Source of the DNA: Candidatus Poribacteria bacterium
Lineage (GTDB): Bacteria; Poribacteria; WGA-4E; WGA-3G
Length of the DNA stretch: 64,000 bases
Reading direction: 5' to 3'
Assembly: GCA_965198235.1 (NCBI GenBank)
Contig: OZ240248.1
Coordinates: forward strand, 4,576,001-4,640,000
A program made the position numbers and the translations under genes. How positions within the stretch are numbered: the stretch's first letter is position 1; every line of letters begins with the position of its first letter. Positions 5,400-60,751 of the stretch are shown here, one piece after another. A model generated the notes under the pieces. The model did not search any database and had not been told where the DNA came from. It worked only from the letters and a program-made list of their open reading frames with translations.

Positions 5400-5545
5400 A
5401 GGAAGCGGCACTCTGTGTGAGGCGTATCCTGTAAGTGTGTAGAAGAATTTCATACCTTATATCGGTATTTCTTTTTTCATCTGATCTGACAGGATACTGT
5501 GCTCTGTTCCACCGCTTTCCCGCGAAAGCAGATGCGTGAAACATG

Positions 5546-5753
5546 ATTCAGGCAGGTCTCCTGACTTCCGATCATTTAGCGTAGTTACAAGCCAAAACTC
5601 GCACTACAGAGTTCCGCTGAACCTTCCCATCAGTTATCTGACAGTGGTTTTTCAACGGATAATTGCCTTTGATAGAGGCTGATCGTTCACAGTGGCGGGG
5701 CCGTGGCGGATTCTCACCGCGCTTCCCTATTCTCCGTAATTCGGCACCTGAAC
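5546..5753 (-). ncRNA. Cobalamin (B12) riboswitch
   Basis: Minus strand TTCAGGTGCC...AATAGGGAAGCGCGGTGAGAATCCGCCACGGCCCCGCCACTGTGA...CCACTG...GGGAAGG...GAAGTCAGGAGACCTGCCTGAA: core motifs and B12 box present. Confidence 0.95.
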
Positions 5754-5781
5754 CGTTAGTTTATTCAATTGTAATACATAT

Positions 5782-25213: not shown

Positions 25214-26536
25214 TTAAAAATCGACTTCTTCTTCGATTCTAATAAGTTGTGCTTCGTCTTTTACATCTTCGAGTGTGTAAATCTGCGCGAGCGCGGCTTT
25301 CATGTTTTTTTCTTGTGCTTTGTGCGTCAACATCACCAACGATACTGTCTCCATGCCGTGCGGATCCTTTTGGATGACAGACGCGATGCTAATCTGCCAG
25401 TTCCCCAGAATAGTTCCGATTTTCGCCAGAACGCCGGGTCGGTCGGCAACCACAAAACGGATGTAATACCGCGTCTCAATATCATCAATAGGACATATGC
25501 CGACTTCCGCCTGTGCCCCTGCGAGCCATGCTTGTGAAATCGGGGTGCTTATGCCTTGTTGCACAGATTTCGCGGCATCAATGATGTCAGCGACAACAGC
25601 ACTCGCCGTTGGCATCTCACCAGCACCCTGTCCATAAAAGAGGGTCGGACCGACTGCATCACCGATCACACAAACAGCGTTGAATGCACCACCGACGTTC
25701 GCTAACAAACTCCGCTCTGGCACGAGTGTCGGATGTACACGCGCCTCCACACGATTTCCGTCGGTTAGTTTCGCGATTGCGAGCAGCTTAATGACGTAAC
25801 CGAGTTCGCGAGCGTATTGAATCTCTTTTTGGGTGATACCTGTAATACCTTCAACATGGAATTGCGATAGTGAGATATTGCTCCGATAGGCGAGGGCGAT
25901 CAGGAGAATGAGTTTTTGTGCAGCATCAATTCCTTCAACGTCAAGCGTTGGGTCGGCTTCGGCGTACCCCTTGTCCTGCGCGACTTTGAGCACATCTGAA
26001 AAGTCTACAGCGCGCTCGTGCATTTCGGTCAAAATGTAGTTACACGTACCGTTCACAATACCATAAAGGGAGTGGATCTGGTTGCCAGCGAAACTTTCTT
26101 GTAGGGTTTTAATGATCGGAATACCACCCGCCGTGCTTGCCTCGAAGTTGAGACTCACTTGGTGTTCTGAAGCCAGTTGGAACAACTCGCCACCATGTTC
26201 GGCAAGAAGGGCTTTGTTTGCTGTGACGACGTGTTTACCATTTTGGAGTGCGCGTCTAATGACGGAGTGTGCTGTTGTGACACCGCCGATAAGTTCAACA
26301 ACAATATCGATATCTGGATTGTCAACGACTTCTGCGGGGTCCGTTGTTAAACAATCCATAGGAAGCTCAACACCTTGCCGCGTCGCGGGTAACGTCCGTT
26401 TTACTATTTTTTTTAGGCACAATTCCGTGCCACTATTTTTGGCAATGAGGGAATTCTGATTCATCAGGATTTTGGAAACGCCAGTGCCGACAGTACCCCA
26501 TCCTAAAATGCCAACATTAATACACGACTTGTCCAC
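25214..26536 (-). CDS. hom: Homoserine dehydrogenase with C-terminal ACT domain
   Basis: [33 protein letters not shown] and DRPGVLA motifs. Confidence 0.96.
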
Positions 26537-26616
26537 TACTGCAACCCCCTCCTTTCTTTACTATTTATCGCGCGGCTTGTATACACCACTTACAAGACGA
26601 TATTACATATCAGAGA

Positions 26617-26690
26617 TCGGGGCGACTGGATTCGAACCAGCGACCTCTTGAACCCCATTCAAGCGCGCTTCCGGGCTGCGCCACGCCCCG
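26617..26690 (-). tRNA. tRNA-Pro(GGG), CCA not encoded
   Basis: CGGGGCGTGGCGCAGCCCGGAAGCGCGCTTGAATGGGGTTCAAGAGGTCGCTGGTTCGAATCCAGTCGCCCCGA folds as a cloverleaf with anticodon GGG. Confidence 0.96.
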
Positions 26691-26783
26691 TTAACAGAAT
26701 CAATTTCCTTTTAATTGTATCACAAGTCATCGTGTAATGTCAAGTGATAGACCCAAGTCTAAAGACTTGGGCTTCTGCAATCA

Positions 26784-27998
26784 TTAAGCAGAAGCATTTG
26801 TGGAATTCAGAATCGGATGGTTAGATTCAACGGAGCCGCCTACGATCTTGTTAAACAAAACAATAGGTCTTACAACTCCTAACCCAAAGGAAGCTATCCC
26901 TTCCTTAAGAATGTTCATAGCAGCGTTCTCGTCGCGGTCCAGGTGTGTATGACAACTTGGACACGTCCAGTGACGATCTGATAGCGTGAGATTTTCATTT
27001 TTATCTCCACACACACAACAGCACTTTGTGGTGGGAGACCACCGATTGATTTTCAGCACAGAGCGGATACGCTTGTGACTCTGGTGTTTGAGTTTCTGAT
27101 AGAACTCACCAAAACCAAGGTCAGATACCTGTTTGCCAAAGAGTGCTTTCATGCCGCGAAGGTTCAAATCTTCAAAGAACAGGATGTCAAACTGACGACA
27201 AAGTTCTATCGCAAGTTTCCAATGGTGGTCTGCTCTCTGATTCGCAGTCTTCTTATGGATACGTGCAACGTTCTTGCGTTCGCGTTCGAGATTCTGAGAA
27301 CCTTTGACCTTGCGAGAATACGCCTTTTGTGCTGTCGCCAACTTTTCAGCATTCTGTTTGTAGAACATCGGAGAGATATATCTATGACCATCACTGCCGA
27401 TCAAGAAGTCTTTAATACCAAAATCAAACCCTTCAGCTTGACCCGTCTTGGGTTCAATTTTAATTTCGGTATAGTCTTCTGTCAGGGTGATATACATATC
27501 TCCGAGTGCGTCCCTCGTTACATGAACTTCAATGATGATGCCTTTGATTTCACGGTGCAGAGCAAACCGATACCAACGACCGTTGAGTCGGATTTTATAC
27601 GTCGGGTGGTTCCTCTCGTGTTTTTGCGCGTCCAGCACTTTTTCTATTTTGACCTGTTCACCGCGAAACGTCATCCCTTTGTGTTTCTGACAGGACTTGA
27701 ATTTCGGGTGACCTCTACCGAGCGTTTTTATTTCTTTGAAACTCTGGGTTTCCAGACGCTTGAGAACATTTTGCAACGCCCATGAGTAGGGAATATTCCA
27801 ATGCTGGTATTTTTCAAGACGCTTCAGTTTCGTCAAATGCTTCGACATTTTGGAATACGACACGCCTTTCCCATAGCGGCGGTAATATCGCATAGACAGC
27901 GCAAGGAAGTGATTCTTGACAACGCCAGAGATATTGCACTCGTCGTGCAGGTGACACAATGTCTTATCCTTGAAAAGTTTGTGTTTTGTGTTTCGCAT
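26784..27998 (-). CDS. tnpB: RNA-guided endonuclease TnpB with RuvC D-E-D intact
   Basis: GFDFGIKD, FFEDLN, CxxC...CPSC and DRDENAAMNI motifs. Confidence 0.93.
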   Translation of the reverse strand: MRNTKHKLFKDKTLCHLHDECNISGVVKNHFLALSMRYYRRYGKGVSYSKMSKHLTKLKRLEKYQHWNIPYSWALQNVLKRLETQSFKEIKTLGRGHPKFKSCQKHKGMTFRGEQVKIEKVLDAQKHERNHPTYKIRLNGRWYRFALHREIKGIIIEVHVTRDALGDMYITLTEDYTEIKIEPKTGQAEGFDFGIKDFLIGSDGHRYISPMFYKQNAEKLATAQKAYSRKVKGSQNLERERKNVARIHKKTANQRADHHWKLAIELCRQFDILFFEDLNLRGMKALFGKQVSDLGFGEFYQKLKHQSHKRIRSVLKINRWSPTTKCCCVCGDKNENLTLSDRHWTCPSCHTHLDRDENAAMNILKEGIASFGLGVVRPIVLFNKIVGGSVESNHPILNSTNASA

Positions 27999-28009
27999 GG
28001 TATCTCACA

Positions 28010-28090
28010 GATCACAGAGTTTTACCCCGTTCAAGTGGGTAGGCAGACACGTAACCTTGCGATTACGCTTGAACTGTCTGCCACTGTGAT
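28010..28090 (-). ncRNA. Candidate structured 5' leader RNA of tnpB, copy 1
   Basis: Near-identical to 60200-60278 with compensatory changes; lies between a consensus promoter and the tnpB start. Confidence 0.7.
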
Positions 28091-28097
28091 ACTCTTA

Positions 28098-28126
28098 ATT
28101 ATACCACATTTTTGGCTAAAAGTCAA
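28098..28126 (-). promoter_or_regulatory. tnpB promoter of element 1
   Basis: TTGACT-17 nt-TATAAT with extended -10 TG; conserved in element 3. Confidence 0.8.
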
Positions 28127-28218
28127 GTCTTTTTTCAACAGAGACCCACGGTCTCATTCACAAGGGACAGACTGTATCCCAAACCTAAAGGATTGGGTTT
28201 TAGTCTCGGAAGGTTAGA

Positions 28219-28965
28219 TAAAAGAGGGGAGATTCGTGTTGTGTGCCATCAGAACAGGTGAACATCGTTTTGATACCGAAATCATATCCTGCAGCTTTAC
28301 CCGTCTTGGGTATAATTTCGGTTGCGACGTGGTCTGTTGTGACAGACATATAGAAATCTCCAAGCGCATCTGCTTTGACAGTCACTCTCTTGATATTACC
28401 AAGTATCGGGCGAGACAAGTTGAAGCGATACTGTTTGTCCATGATCCGAACCTTATCGCCATAGATACCAAAACCTGATTCGCCTTCTTCAGGATCGGCA
28501 AACGTGAAACCTGACTGGCACATCGTGAACGAATACGGCTTCCGCCATGACCGAAACTTCGGCGGACGTTTGGCAAGTTTGTTAAAGAAACGCTGGTAGC
28601 CTTGGTCCAATCGTTTGAGGATTTCACGCGCAGACCACGTGTTCAGTTCTCGCCAGTGGGCAAACATTTCAGGATGCGAGTTCTTTAGCACGGTAAACTC
28701 ACGCGACATTTCACAAAAGGACATATACGGCAGTCCGAGAGAGTACCGGGTGCGTTGCCAACCGAGAAAATAGTTCCATATTGTGTGTGCTATCCACGTC
28801 TTACGTCTCAAATTACGCAGACGGGGCGTTATTTTCTATAACGCAGGTTTTTATGTTCGCCTACTCTTAAGAAGAGTATCATATCAGATTTTCCAAATCG
28901 TGTCAAGGATTTTTTGACCTTGCACGAAACACGTGGGTTGGACCCAAACCTAAAGGAGTGGGATT
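28219..28965 (-). pseudogene. tnpB: 3'-truncated tnpB with its left end (element 2)
   Basis: The ORF reaches RuvC-I GYDFGIKT and is cut at PLFY by the element 1 left end; left-end hairpin CCCAAACC-TAAA-GGAGTGGG at ~28943-28962; RuvC-II/III and right end absent. Confidence 0.8.
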
Positions 28966-28966
28966 G

Positions 28967-29758
28967 TTAGTGAGTCTTCAGATTTCTGAGACTGATGCCT
29001 AAACTTTCAAACGGATCGCGTTCGTAGCAGGTGTCCTGTTCGATAATATACCACTCAACCTCTGCGTAGATACAAGCGTTCAGAATCGCTGTCCAATTAA
29101 GGTTGCCTTCACCGATTTCTGCGAAGCGTTGTGTAGAGCCTTGCATCGCCATATCCTTGAGATGGATGATGTCGGCGCGTCCTTTTAACTGGCGAATCCA
29201 CGCGGCTGGGTCGCCACCACCGTGCTGAATCCAGTAGGTATCCAGTTCACTCTTGAAGTAATTCGGATCGCTTTCCGCATACAAGATCTCTAACCCAGTA
29301 CGTCCGTTATAGCGTTCCAATTCGAAACTATGGTTATGATAGGAGAAAGTCAAGCCTCCTTCAGCAAGGCGCGCCGCGACTTCCGATGCCTCCCTCGCAA
29401 ATCTGGCATACCCTTCAGCAGTCCGGTATTCACTGGGAAGTCCACCGATTGCGGCATGCTTGCATCCCCACAATTGATGTTCGTCAATAACAGATTGTGG
29501 TTCGTCACGCATCCGTTCGTAACTTGTATGTGTCGCAATGATGCTGATGCCTTCACCGTCAGCAATGTTTTTCAATGCGGCGGGTTCAATTGGACCCAGT
29601 GCGGAACATTGCACCGCCTCATATCCGAGTTGCCGAACCTTTTTCATCGTTTCGGCGATATCAGTTTCGGTTTTGGTAAATTCCCGAACAGTATAAAGCT
29701 GCGCGGCGATTTGCTGCGCTGACAGTGATGAATGTCCTTGGGCGTTTTGTGTTGCCAT
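28967..29758 (-). CDS. Sugar phosphate isomerase/epimerase (xylose-isomerase-like TIM barrel)
   Basis: QLYTVR, YHNHSFE, ELDTYW, HLKD, IGEGNL and IEQD motifs; AAGGAG RBS. Confidence 0.88.
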   Translation of the reverse strand: MATQNAQGHSSLSAQQIAAQLYTVREFTKTETDIAETMKKVRQLGYEAVQCSALGPIEPAALKNIADGEGISIIATHTSYERMRDEPQSVIDEHQLWGCKHAAIGGLPSEYRTAEGYARFAREASEVAARLAEGGLTFSYHNHSFELERYNGRTGLEILYAESDPNYFKSELDTYWIQHGGGDPAAWIRQLKGRADIIHLKDMAMQGSTQRFAEIGEGNLNWTAILNACIYAEVEWYIIEQDTCYERDPFESLGISLRNLKTH

Positions 29759-58944: not shown

Positions 58945-59100
58945 GTGATAGCACCCACAACCTAAAGGTTGGGGCTTCGGTTTCATAGCAACTGCGGTTT
59001 TCTCTAAGAGATGACCGTCTAACCGTCGCTCCACCCGCGGGCAATTGTCTGCTATTGGAACAGATTTATCACGTTTATGTCGTGGCTATCCCTGCCCGCA
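58945..59100 (-). ncRNA. Predicted omega/reRNA scaffold region of TnpB element 3 (5' boundary unknown)
   Basis: Position between the tnpB 3' end and the right end, as established for TnpB systems; not folded computationally. Confidence 0.5.
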
Positions 59101-60187
59101 AAATGTTTATAGCAGCGTTAATGTCTCTATCGTGGGGTGACCCACATTCGGGACATGTCCACTGCCTATCTGAAAGAGAAAGGGTTTCGTTGTGAAAACC
59201 ACAATCACTACACGGCTTTGTCGTTGCCGTCCATTGACCGACTTGACGCAACTCACGCTTATGTTTGCTACACTTATACTTCAATATCTCAACAAACTGG
59301 TAGAAAGCAAGGTCAGAGACCTTACGTCCCCACAAGCGTTTCATACCGTCAAGGTTCAGTGTTTCAATGGCGATTCTATCGAACCGCTTGCAGAGTTCAG
59401 AGGCAAGTTGCCAGTGAAAGTCTGTGCGTTGGTTCGTGATTTTACGATACAGACGGGCAAGTTGCCGAACACAACGCCACCAGCCGTGAGAACCTTTTAT
59501 CTTACGACTCAAGTCCTTGTTGAGACTACGGAGTTTGGTCAAGGAGTGTTTCAAAGGTTGTGGGTGTTGCTTCTTTTCACCCGTGCTAAGTGTCAAGTAA
59601 GCGTCTTTCATACCGAAGTCCGCCCCAACGCTTTCACCTGTTGTTGGCAGACGTTTCATGTCTGTGTAGTTCGTGGTGATACAGAGCCAATAGTCACCAC
59701 AGGTATCACGCTTGAGTGTGATACGATGGATAGAGCCGTGCCATTGGCGGTGTTTATGGAAAGTATAAGGCACACGATCAAATCGCCATTGGCCATTATT
59801 CCATTTTCTAAAGGTGAGTGTAATACGATTGTTTTTCAGTTCCCAACCCGCTTGTCCCGGAAAGGTGATAGACTTGAACTTATGTCTCGACTTGATATGC
59901 GGTCTACCCCCAAGTTTTTTGAGAAAACGCTGATACGCATCATCAATACGCCGCAACTCTTGTTGAATCGATTGGCTCGGCAAGGCGTTCCAATGCGGGT
60001 GCGTCGTTTGTTTCAACTCGGTAAGGTGAGCAGACATGGCGTTATAGTTCGCATACGGCAAGCCATCTTTATATCGCTGACGTTGCCACTTATGGAAGTA
60101 TTCATGCACTTGCCACATATCGTCAAACAGATTACCAATACGAATACAATTGGATTGGTGCCCAAACGGATATTTATAGGTTTTCAT
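59075..60187 (-). CDS. tnpB: RNA-guided endonuclease TnpB with RuvC D-E-D intact
   Basis: GADFGMKD, AIETLN, CSDC...CPEC and DRDINAAINI motifs. Confidence 0.93.
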   Translation of the reverse strand: MKTYKYPFGHQSNCIRIGNLFDDMWQVHEYFHKWQRQRYKDGLPYANYNAMSAHLTELKQTTHPHWNALPSQSIQQELRRIDDAYQRFLKKLGGRPHIKSRHKFKSITFPGQAGWELKNNRITLTFRKWNNGQWRFDRVPYTFHKHRQWHGSIHRITLKRDTCGDYWLCITTNYTDMKRLPTTGESVGADFGMKDAYLTLSTGEKKQHPQPLKHSLTKLRSLNKDLSRKIKGSHGWWRCVRQLARLYRKITNQRTDFHWQLASELCKRFDRIAIETLNLDGMKRLWGRKVSDLAFYQFVEILKYKCSKHKRELRQVGQWTATTKPCSDCGFHNETLSLSDRQWTCPECGSPHDRDINAAINILRAGIATT

Positions 60188-60199
60188 GGTCTATCACAC

Positions 60200-60278
60200 A
60201 TCACACCTTTAACCCCGTTGAAGTGGGTAGGCAGACACGTAACCTTGCGATTACGCTTCAACTGTCTGCCAGTGTGAT
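60200..60278 (-). ncRNA. Candidate structured 5' leader RNA of tnpB, copy 2
   Basis: Same stems as 28010-28090 with two compensatory pair changes. Confidence 0.7.
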
Positions 60279-60284
60279 ATGAAT

Positions 60285-60313
60285 ATTATACCACATTTTT
60301 AGGTAAAAGTCAA
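60285..60313 (-). promoter_or_regulatory. tnpB promoter of element 3
   Basis: TTGACT-17 nt-TATAAT with extended -10 TG. Confidence 0.8.
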
Positions 60314-60751
60314 ATCTTTTTTGGCTTTCAAACGCAATGCCCGCCTACATCCCGCAAGCTAAAGCATGGGGTCTTGGCGGGAAGATTGATAAAAAATTAA
60401 AGAGTTCCAGTGGATCGCTTAGTCGTTTGTTCCAAGCAGAATTTGACAATCAAGAACTTGTTACCGAGTTGTACCTCAGCACGTTAAATCGGTTTCCGAC
60501 GGATACGGAACTTGAAACGGCTGAAGCATATATCGCTGAGAGCCCGGAGCGTCGTTCAGGGTCTGAGGATCTCCTATGGGCACTCATCTCATCAAGAGCA
60601 TTTCTCTTTATCCAGTAAACTAACACTGGATAATCCTTATGGTGAGGCATCGAAGCCTTACCATTTCCACCCCATAAGTTATAGAGCGAGGTCCTGTCCT
60701 CGTGTCTTGTAATCGTGTAACTCTCAACCAGAATCAACAACGGAGGACATA

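Follow-up and report, generated by a model that had tools for sequence, protein, structure and literature searches.

Cas12 descends from TnpB, a compact nuclease for genome editing whose RNA biology has, to our knowledge, so far been confined to the right-end omegaRNA. The window analysed here, a stretch of 64,000 nucleotides from a Candidatus Poribacteria genome, contains two divergent tnpB genes preceded by nearly identical leaders. The question raised by this locus is what kind of RNA the leaders encode and what it does for the transposon. Comparison of aligned copies confirmed that the leader folds as a three-way junction (P0, the P1-P2 arm and P3) locked by a 7-bp bulge-loop pseudoknot. 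It appears to form the 5' end of the primary transcript made by TnpB-only IS200/IS605-family (IS1341-like) elements of a Poribacteria genome, with transcription that would begin at the predicted +1. The leader, which matches no described RNA family, probably has a role in the stability and translation of the tnpB transcript. Compared with the preliminary description of the locus, the two registers of the closing helix P0, the several sequence types, the mini-elements and the absence of the leader after tnpA are new.

Anatomy of the two window copies

The arrangement of both copies was read on the minus strand, where a sub-terminal hairpin is followed by the promoter, a structured stretch of about 95 nt and the ATG of tnpB. 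The features of copy A are as follows.

28216-26744, minus strand: whole element (19-copy comparison of ends)
28178-28216, minus strand: left end, starting at 28216 after the flanking TTATC at 28221-28217 (19-copy comparison)
28197-28178, minus strand: sub-terminal left hairpin (19-copy comparison)
28121-28126, minus strand: -35 hexamer TTGACT (promoter scan, 11/12 matches, 17-nt spacer)
28098-28103, minus strand: -10 hexamer TATAAT with upstream TG, extended -10 (promoter scan and sequence)
Near 28093-28091, minus strand: +1 predicted from the promoter
28000-28092, minus strand: leader RNA, between the near-consensus promoter and the tnpB start codon
28084-28090, minus strand: P0 5' strand (X), ATCACAG; the upstream GU (28092-91) is added in register B
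28075-28082, minus strand: P1 5' strand GGCAGACA, partner 28042-28049
28068-28074, minus strand: 7-nt bulge GTTCAAG, pseudoknot 5' strand, partner P3 loop 28029-28035
28050-28067, minus strand: P2 hairpin of 7 bp with GCAA loop, strands 28067-61 with 28056-50
28042-28049, minus strand: P1 3' strand TGTCTGCC (fold and covariation)
28024-28040, minus strand: P3 hairpin ACCC/GGGT, strands 28040-37 with 28027-24
28029-28035, minus strand: P3 loop CTTGAAC, pseudoknot 3' strand (fold and covariation)
28011-28017, minus strand: P0 3' strand of register A, CTGTGAT, ending 12 nt before the ATG
28000-28010, minus strand: second P0 3' strand, register B, CTGTGA and GATAC, ending 1-6 nt before the ATG
26784-27998, minus strand: tnpB ORF of 404 aa with OrfB_IS605 and Cas12f1-like TNB domains, ATG at 27998-96
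tnpB 3' part and DNA down to 26744, minus strand: presumed omegaRNA scaffold, placed by analogy with known TnpB systems
26744-26771, minus strand: right end, with hairpin 26771-26752 and terminal TCTATCAC; the element ends at 26744

The corresponding features of copy B are listed below.

58945-60387, minus strand: whole element; left end after TTATC at 60392-88, final CTATCAC at 58945
60371-51 and 58974-54, minus strand: left and right hairpin (19-copy comparison of ends)
60285-60313, minus strand: promoter TTGACT (60313-08), 17-nt spacer, TATAAT (60290-85) with TG (scan, 11/12)
Near 60281-60279, minus strand: +1 predicted from the promoter
60188-60280, minus strand: leader RNA (covariance-model match of 104.6 bits)
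60278-72, minus strand: P0 5' strand X (fold reading)
60270-63 with 60237-30, minus strand: P1 (fold reading)
60262-56 (bulge) with 60223-17 (loop), minus strand: pseudoknot (fold reading)
60255-38, minus strand: P2 (fold reading)
60228-25 with 60215-12, minus strand: P3 (fold reading)
60206-00 and 60199-92, minus strand: P0 3' strands of registers A and B (ungapped-helix counting)
59075-60187, minus strand: tnpB ORF of 370 aa with OrfB_IS605 and Cas12f1-like TNB domains, 37% identical to the TnpB of copy A

The preliminary description had reported a near-identical leader core in front of divergent tnpB genes, a TTGACT-17-TATAAT promoter just upstream of it and two compensatory swaps, and all of these observations were reproduced. 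Both promoters show TTGACT, a 17-nt spacer, TATAAT and the TG extension, with 11/12 matches each. The 60-nt core differs at three positions between copies A and B, two of which form a swap of C/G and G/C in the pseudoknot, although the two TnpB proteins share 37% identity. The P0 swap, CACAG/CTGTG versus CACAC/GTGTG, is also real and is accompanied by a third matching change in the downstream second 3' strand.

The elements of this genome have a common plan consisting of the TTATC flank, left-end hairpin, promoter, leader, tnpB, right-end hairpin and (T/G)CTATCAC (19 full copies). An alignment of 11 TnpB proteins of this kind shows no variation in the acidic RuvC residues or in the four cysteines of the zinc ribbon. 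Copy A is inserted in an older, different tnpB, as the ORF 28200-28811 halts exactly at the insertion point and aligns with 35% identity to TnpB residues 23-213. This older gene belongs to a different TnpB lineage, and a simple hairpin lies directly behind the promoter that it has of its own. The antisense ORFs 27801-28217 and 59192-60277 (plus strand), which run over the leaders, have no Pfam family and were taken as spurious. ARAGORN on 26400-28200 reported a tRNA-Pro at 26617-26690 alone.

Covariation of the fold and the registers of P0

The reality of the fold was analysed at the level of the window, the genome and the phylum. The core pattern occurs twice in the window against 0.00 occurrences expected in shuffles, and the fold z-scores of the two copies are -3.5 and -4.7. 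The genome holds 24 leader copies by BLAST and 27 by covariance model. For the 22 distinct own-genome copies, 92.1% of the cells are paired, compared to 30-42% in a control where the partner strands were slid by 1-3 columns. For 96 matches from Poribacteria genomes, this one included (94 distinct rows), an alignment guided by the model gave 95.1% paired cells against 20-46% for slid partners, 29/33 double-changed pairs and a covariation score of 0.511 against 0.02-0.06, values which are flattering for the nested helices since the alignment was fitted to them. The pseudoknot lay outside the search model, and 6/7 of its pairs are nevertheless double-changed with 4-5 pair types each. The fold as described earlier, with P0, P1, P2, P3 and the 7-bp pseudoknot, was confirmed in this larger alignment. 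This combination of conserved structure and compensatory changes is one expected of a structured cis-regulatory 5' leader RNA, and it bears out the earlier view of a second structured element of the TnpB transposons distinct from the right-end omegaRNA.

The strand and the peripheral parts of the fold could also be assigned. U-G pairs are present at two positions in 25 and 31 of the 94 rows, and because these would be C-A mismatches on the opposite strand, the fold belongs to the tnpB-sense strand. The P2 tip occurs as GCAA, GCUU or UCUC, or carries a 28-nt insertion in some relatives, and such tolerance indicates that the tip is peripheral. Recent copying alone was rejected as the cause of the conservation because of the compensatory changes in the sets of 22 and 94 copies; cassette exchange does occur.

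The position of the leader is constant relative to the consensus promoter and the ATG, the start site being predicted from the promoter. In both window copies, and in all the sequence types that were read, the predicted +1 lies 2-4 nt ahead of the start of P0. Of the 96 leaders, 61 have a TnpB ORF of 340 aa or more directly behind them and 14 others have a partial one. The P1 5' strand remains 90-95% identical even where the TnpB proteins share 26-35% identity. The five inner pseudoknot positions show 36-42% identity already at 73% third-codon-position identity (38 pairs), which stands as an unexplained observation and not as a test of selection because the pairs are non-independent and cassette exchange can uncouple the histories of leader and gene.

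The closing helix revealed a further property, as the complement of the P0 5' strand is present twice in tandem and the strand may pair with the one copy or the other. The pairing stops 9-13 nt short of the ATG in register A and 1-7 nt short of it in register B; the earlier statement that the RNA ends about 12 nt before the ATG therefore holds for register A and fails for register B. Scored by ungapped-helix counting, both registers are available in 22/22 own-genome copies against 24% of shuffled tails, and in 84/90 of the larger set against 47% when the tail of another copy was used. Both 3' copies track the 5'-strand variants CAAG, CACG, CAGG, CGUG and CUCG. In type 2 leaders the second 3' copy contains the ATG itself. 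The register lengths vary (A 5-13 bp, B 5-11 bp) and either may be the longer one, so that a simple rule in which B is the off state is unproven. The two pairings are mutually exclusive and the second lies beside or over the start codon, as expected for the expression platform of a riboswitch.

Relation to known RNAs, sequence types and distribution

The leader was compared with described RNA families, including the IS605-associated motifs as had been proposed earlier, and no characterised family was matched. Rfam 15 at gathering score found a Cobalamin riboswitch and one tRNA only in the whole window, leaving the leader unmatched. All 4227 models applied to 27900-28250 at E up to 10 gave one chance match of 14.6 bits to TLS-PK2 on the opposite strand, and at E up to 1 no match was obtained on 8 loci spanning all leader types. 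The leader was not matched by IS605-orfB-I (RF03065), HEARO (RF02033) or the riboswitch and ribozyme models of Rfam. A search of a limited collection of papers found no description of it.

The TnpB omegaRNA is placed by one account at the tnpB 3' end and downstream, abutting the guide (PMC10691335). The leader resembles it in being a structured, pseudoknotted RNA of the same transposon and probably of the same primary transcript. In contrast, it lies at the 5' end and not at or after the tnpB 3' end, does not end at the right end beside a guide and has no 7-mer in common with the right-end region. IS605-orfB-I (RF03065) and HEARO (RF02033) are listed as Rfam families in the account consulted (PMC11701678). 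Both are structured RNAs adjoining IS605-type orfB or OMEGA nuclease genes, and HEARO, the omegaRNA of IscB/IsrB, is like the leader upstream of its own nuclease gene; the leader, however, matches neither model. A structure of translational control is also found in IS200, where a stem-loop in the tnpA 5' UTR hides the ribosome-binding site. It is a cis-acting 5' structure that limits the translation of an IS200/IS605-family gene, as is proposed for the leader. The IS200 structure is a simple hairpin before tnpA, whereas the leader is a pseudoknotted three-way junction with two closing registers before tnpB, and it is also kept where no ORF remains.

The preliminary description had suggested a ribozyme, a riboswitch-like element, an autoregulatory TnpB site or a part of a trans-acting scaffold, none of which was established by the evidence. 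Small ribozymes are often associated with mobile elements, and the leader is compact, pseudoknotted and carried by such an element, so it could be a self-cleaving ribozyme or an RNase processing signal that parts a stable leader from the mRNA/omegaRNA precursor. However, there is no Rfam ribozyme match, and neither the core nor the topology of the hammerhead, HDV-like, twister, pistol or hatchet ribozymes is present. The helices are nested apart from one pseudoknot, unlike HDV-like and twister ribozymes, the junction lacks the hammerhead core letters and no unpaired letter is conserved over all types. The leader is not tRNA-like either, as ARAGORN and the Rfam tRNA model are silent on it. Cleavage or processing of this kind is very improbable. 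As regards the scaffold, no complementarity of the leader to the rest of the element was found.

The distribution was analysed with the covariance model. The named relatives of the TnpB proteins all come from Candidatus Poribacteria MAGs. The model found the leader in 24/24 other genomes of the window's genus and in 0/16 from three other families of the order. A wider draw from the phylum gave 56/56 in the window's genus, 15/38, 1/2 and 1/1 in three other genera of the family, 3/20 in one genus belonging to a different family and none in another 17 genera. There are at least 1,117 leader matches in 77 of the 151 Poribacteria genomes searched, the counts per genome being lower bounds. Among 80 TnpB loci from many phyla the model matched 20, all of them Poribacteria; a strict descriptor, which is blind to leader types 2 and 3, matched 8/80 (all Poribacteria) against 1/80 shuffled controls. 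At Nostocales tnpB loci there is either a divergent gene upstream or a -10 box at a distance of 6 nt from the ATG. An exact-core scan of metagenome contigs yielded 3 matches, each with leader and TnpB, and the same scan of viral contigs yielded none. The leader is absent where tnpB follows tnpA, in 3 cases of the Y1 type and 1 of the serine-recombinase type.

At least four sequence types were distinguished, all of which have one architecture in which the 7-nt bulge, a P3 loop that matches it and two 3' copies in tandem are present. The P1 sequences are GGCAGACA (type 1), GGTAGAGA (type 2), GTGGGAGA (type 3), GGACAAYG (type 4) and, at one additional locus, GGATAGGA. Type-1 and type-2 leaders occur on tnpB genes that are 80-95% identical in DNA, the first 100 nt of these genes being nearly identical. 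The segment of promoter and leader therefore behaves as an exchangeable cassette, and its function is not tied to one TnpB. The junction strands are conserved within type 1 and differ among types 1, 2, 3 and 4, and no unpaired letter is common to all leader types. Type-1 leaders have no Shine-Dalgarno sequence to occlude. No TnpB was found after the type-4 leader (0/15), and a right-end motif lies 336-398 nt downstream of it in 13/20 such loci.

These exchanges bear on two of the suggestions above. Binding of TnpB or of the TnpB-omegaRNA complex to the leader, for autoregulation of translation or for recruitment to omegaRNA processing, would agree with the constant company of the leader, which is always found with TnpB elements or their omegaRNA-only derivatives and is kept beside the omegaRNA in the latter, as recruitment would require. 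The sequence conservation of P1 and P3 beyond mere pairing suggests contact with a protein. However, one P1 sequence serves TnpB proteins that are only 26-35% identical, different leader types sit on tnpB genes with 80-95% identity in DNA, and no sequence common or complementary to the omegaRNA region was found. The tnpA-tnpB elements are without a leader although their TnpB should need equal control. An autoregulatory or recruiting site of this kind is considered unlikely.

A riboswitch-like function would mean that a ligand or cellular factor stabilises the pseudoknotted junction, picks the P0 register and switches the translation of TnpB. Aptamers are commonly built as a three-way junction with a pseudoknot between loop and bulge, and the purine and THF-I riboswitch aptamers are three-way junctions with a long-range loop contact. 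The leader shares with them a pair of adjacent arms held together by loop-loop or loop-bulge pairing, and a closing helix for which an alternative pairing exists close to the start codon. The two exclusive and covarying pairings beside the start codon resemble an expression platform, and in type 1 the junction letters, P1 and P3 are highly conserved. A ligand core conserved in sequence across representatives is, however, lacking, as the junction letters differ among types 1-4 even though the types replace one another on similar tnpB genes. In contrast to the purine and THF-I aptamers, the leader junction varies by type, has no match to an Rfam riboswitch at E up to 10 (leader) or 1 (8 loci) and persists in mini-elements without an ORF. 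Sensing of a ligand is regarded as unlikely.

These mini-elements are about 0.5 kb long and lack TnpB. Between their left and right ends they carry the promoter and the leader, then about 130 nt of further sequence and then the omegaRNA region. They have one common deletion junction, yet show compensating changes in the pseudoknot (six variants), P1 and P0. The former start-codon region also pairs and covaries with the second 3' copy. As the 15 type-4 leaders of the mini-elements still covary, the fold is maintained where nothing is translated.

Retention in untranslated mini-elements, where Rho threatens, agrees with an antitermination role in which this promoter-proximal RNA would make the polymerase resistant to termination or block Rho, so that transcription reaches the omegaRNA and guide about 1.4 kb downstream. 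The put RNA of phage HK022 makes RNA polymerase resistant to termination in such a way. The fold forms immediately after the predicted +1, the action would not depend on the type of TnpB and conserved stem sequences suit contact with the polymerase. Antitermination nevertheless leaves the two P0 registers and the tie to the start codon unexplained, and tnpA-tnpB elements, which would need the same help, have no leader; it is regarded as improbable.

Mini-elements usually retain only the parts needed in cis, and the presence of the leader in them could also be read as a sign that the fold acts as top-strand ssDNA in TnpA-mediated transposition and not as RNA. The sense strand also carries the target motif 5' of the left end, and G-T wobbles are possible in DNA. 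On the other side, all four types have the structure tied to the promoter +1 and the start codon. It is located 125-215 nt from the end of the element, further inward than the usual sub-terminal hairpins, which are present separately, and has a GNRA-type loop. An ssDNA role is scarcely credible in view of these observations.

Two further relations between the leader and the element were considered. The leader 5' letters TATCAC were compared with the right-end CTATCAC and this link was rejected, as right ends with ...TTGAC or ...TATGAC keep the same leader 5' strand and leader types 2-4 have other 5' strands. The 7-mers of the pseudoknot and P0, or their complements, had no consistent extra occurrence in the 19 full elements that could provide long-range pairing.

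Proposed role of the leader and its significance

The preferred reading, to which we give a probability of about 40%, is that the leader is a cis-acting 5'-terminal fold which protects the tnpB/omegaRNA precursor and throttles TnpB translation by slipping between registers. The other readings rank behind it in the order riboswitch, TnpB-binding site, antitermination RNA, ribozyme or processing signal, and ssDNA role. The near-consensus extended -10 promoter just inside the left end would start the RNA, and its first ~95 nt would fold. P0 would bury the 5' end of the transcript and may in this way protect a long precursor with the tnpB message and the 3' omegaRNA guide. P0 could then slip between the two registers, of which the downstream one would cover -3 to -12, or the AUG in type 2. 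Register B would restrain the translation of TnpB compared with what the very strong promoter delivers. The analysis itself shows the fold, its covariation and position, the two registers and the company of tnpB or of mini-elements; we infer transcription from the predicted +1, transcript stabilisation and a translational throttle.

Several observations are in accordance with this protective and throttling fold. In every type the leader keeps its place relative to the predicted +1 and to the start codon, and its covariation in the pseudoknot, P1 and P0 of the mini-elements points to a role beyond translation. It is not found where tnpB follows tnpA, which suggests that a tnpB located behind another gene can do without it. 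The neighbouring TnpB lineage has a simple hairpin right after its own promoter, and the swaps between types 1 and 2 indicate independence of one TnpB lineage. The ompA leader is a known 5'-terminal stabiliser stem-loop of bacterial mRNA, and as proposed here for P0, a helix which includes the first transcript nucleotides guards against 5'-end-dependent decay. The known stabilisers are simple hairpins, whereas the leader is far more elaborate and conserved in sequence.

This difference also counts against the protective fold, since a plain 5' hairpin is enough for protection and the junction, the pseudoknot and the near-invariant P1 and P3 suggest a specific partner outside this model. The throttle is opposed by the inconstant register lengths, of which either can be the longer, by the type-1 leaders in which no Shine-Dalgarno sequence is available for occlusion and by the mini-elements, which keep register B with nothing to translate.

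Public RNA data were also inspected. In Logan contigs of 4 sponge metatranscriptome runs from one study (60-73% of words), the leader, tnpB, the promoter and the upstream DNA are all covered. One contig spans 27580-28062; being assembled from RNA libraries, such contigs indicate no start site. Another, 28054-28198 over the promoter and left end, has a depth of 3.9, compared to 7.3 for the upstream region 28300-28900 and 4.7-10 for the tnpB body. The high contig depth over 27996-28079 is the sum of the contigs of many paralogous copies. Since promoter and upstream DNA are covered at depths like those of the tnpB body, these data speak neither for nor against transcription from this promoter, an RNA end or a level of expression.

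A more far-reaching variant of the proposal would be a transposon RNA switch, in which a cellular signal or factor, sensed by the pseudoknotted junction, sets the P0 register and so decides between TnpB translation and guide-RNA precursor, with the rapidly changing pseudoknot acting as a per-lineage barcode against mis-pairing of co-resident copies. Such a switch is conceivable, although rather unlikely.

A second conserved and pseudoknotted RNA at the other end of the transcript would point to an unstudied layer of control over the balance between nuclease and guide. The finding is notable for its extent of at least 1,117 matches in 77/151 Poribacteria genomes, for the exchange of the leader as a cassette and for its retention in guide-only mini-elements. 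With its rich covariation the leader is a candidate for a new Rfam family, and its source is an uncultivated phylum of sponge symbionts. Should the leader stabilise or gate the precursor, tuning the expression of TnpB and omegaRNA would be a possible use for it.

The insertion site of copy A

The surroundings of the copy A tnpB transposon were analysed at both of its ends, and the features at the two ends are as follows (window positions).

26617-26690, minus strand: tRNA-Pro (GGG), directly downstream of the right end of copy A
26743-26714, minus strand: promoter of this tRNA-Pro, TTGACA-18-TACAAT
28200-28990, minus strand: an older, different tnpB, 35% identical, cut off at SPLFY

The tRNA's own promoter begins one base past the transposon terminus, so that copy A is placed as having inserted right at the tRNA promoter. 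At the other end, the insertion of copy A truncates the older tnpB, the remainder of which was not found beyond the copy A right end. The older gene has a left-end hairpin and a TTGACA-17-TATGAT promoter of its own, and it carries a simple 5' hairpin in place of the pseudoknotted leader. Among other RNA in the window, a cobalamin riboswitch aptamer was matched at 5534-5766 (minus strand) with 93.4 bits over the full length of the model.

Variation of the leader and of its promoter

The fast turnover of the pseudoknot was followed in alignment A4, which compares leader loci L025-L194. The five inner pairs of the pseudoknot were close to random among elements having tnpB third-codon positions still 73% identical; the identity of P1 was 90-95% at any distance. 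An insertion of about 28 nt, rich in G+C, was located at the tip of P2 in the leaders L127, L096, L109 and L068:2374-2497.

Structured insertions of 44-87 nt were also found in four leader promoters of the window's own genome (G000 C1:2106905, 2575477, 79488 and 5120916; loci L043, L025, L041 and L047), at an identical point within the -35 box. These insertions have terminal inverted repeats, TCGGAAAGTGG...CCACTTTCCG, together with inner hairpins, and resemble a very small element, either mobile or regulatory, that targets the leader promoter. The copy at G000 C1:2106905-2107005 (L043/L002), whose leader is identical to that of copy A, carries such an insertion along with a change of the start codon from ATG to CTG, and is probably an inactivated element.

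Mini-elements and Nostocales loci

Within the window's genus, at least 12 genomes carry mini-elements of about 0.5 kb without TnpB.

G000 C1:858338-858437: mini-element L050
G000 C1:3783663-3783761: mini-element L051
Other genomes: mini-elements L174-L201

Their order is left end, promoter, type-4 leader (one of the leader sequence types), about 130 nt of additional sequence rich in hairpins, omegaRNA region and right end. In the Nostocales TnpB loci L105, L113 and L119, only about 6 nt separate the -10 box from the ATG, a spacing which suggests that these cyanobacterial relatives make tnpB mRNAs without a leader.
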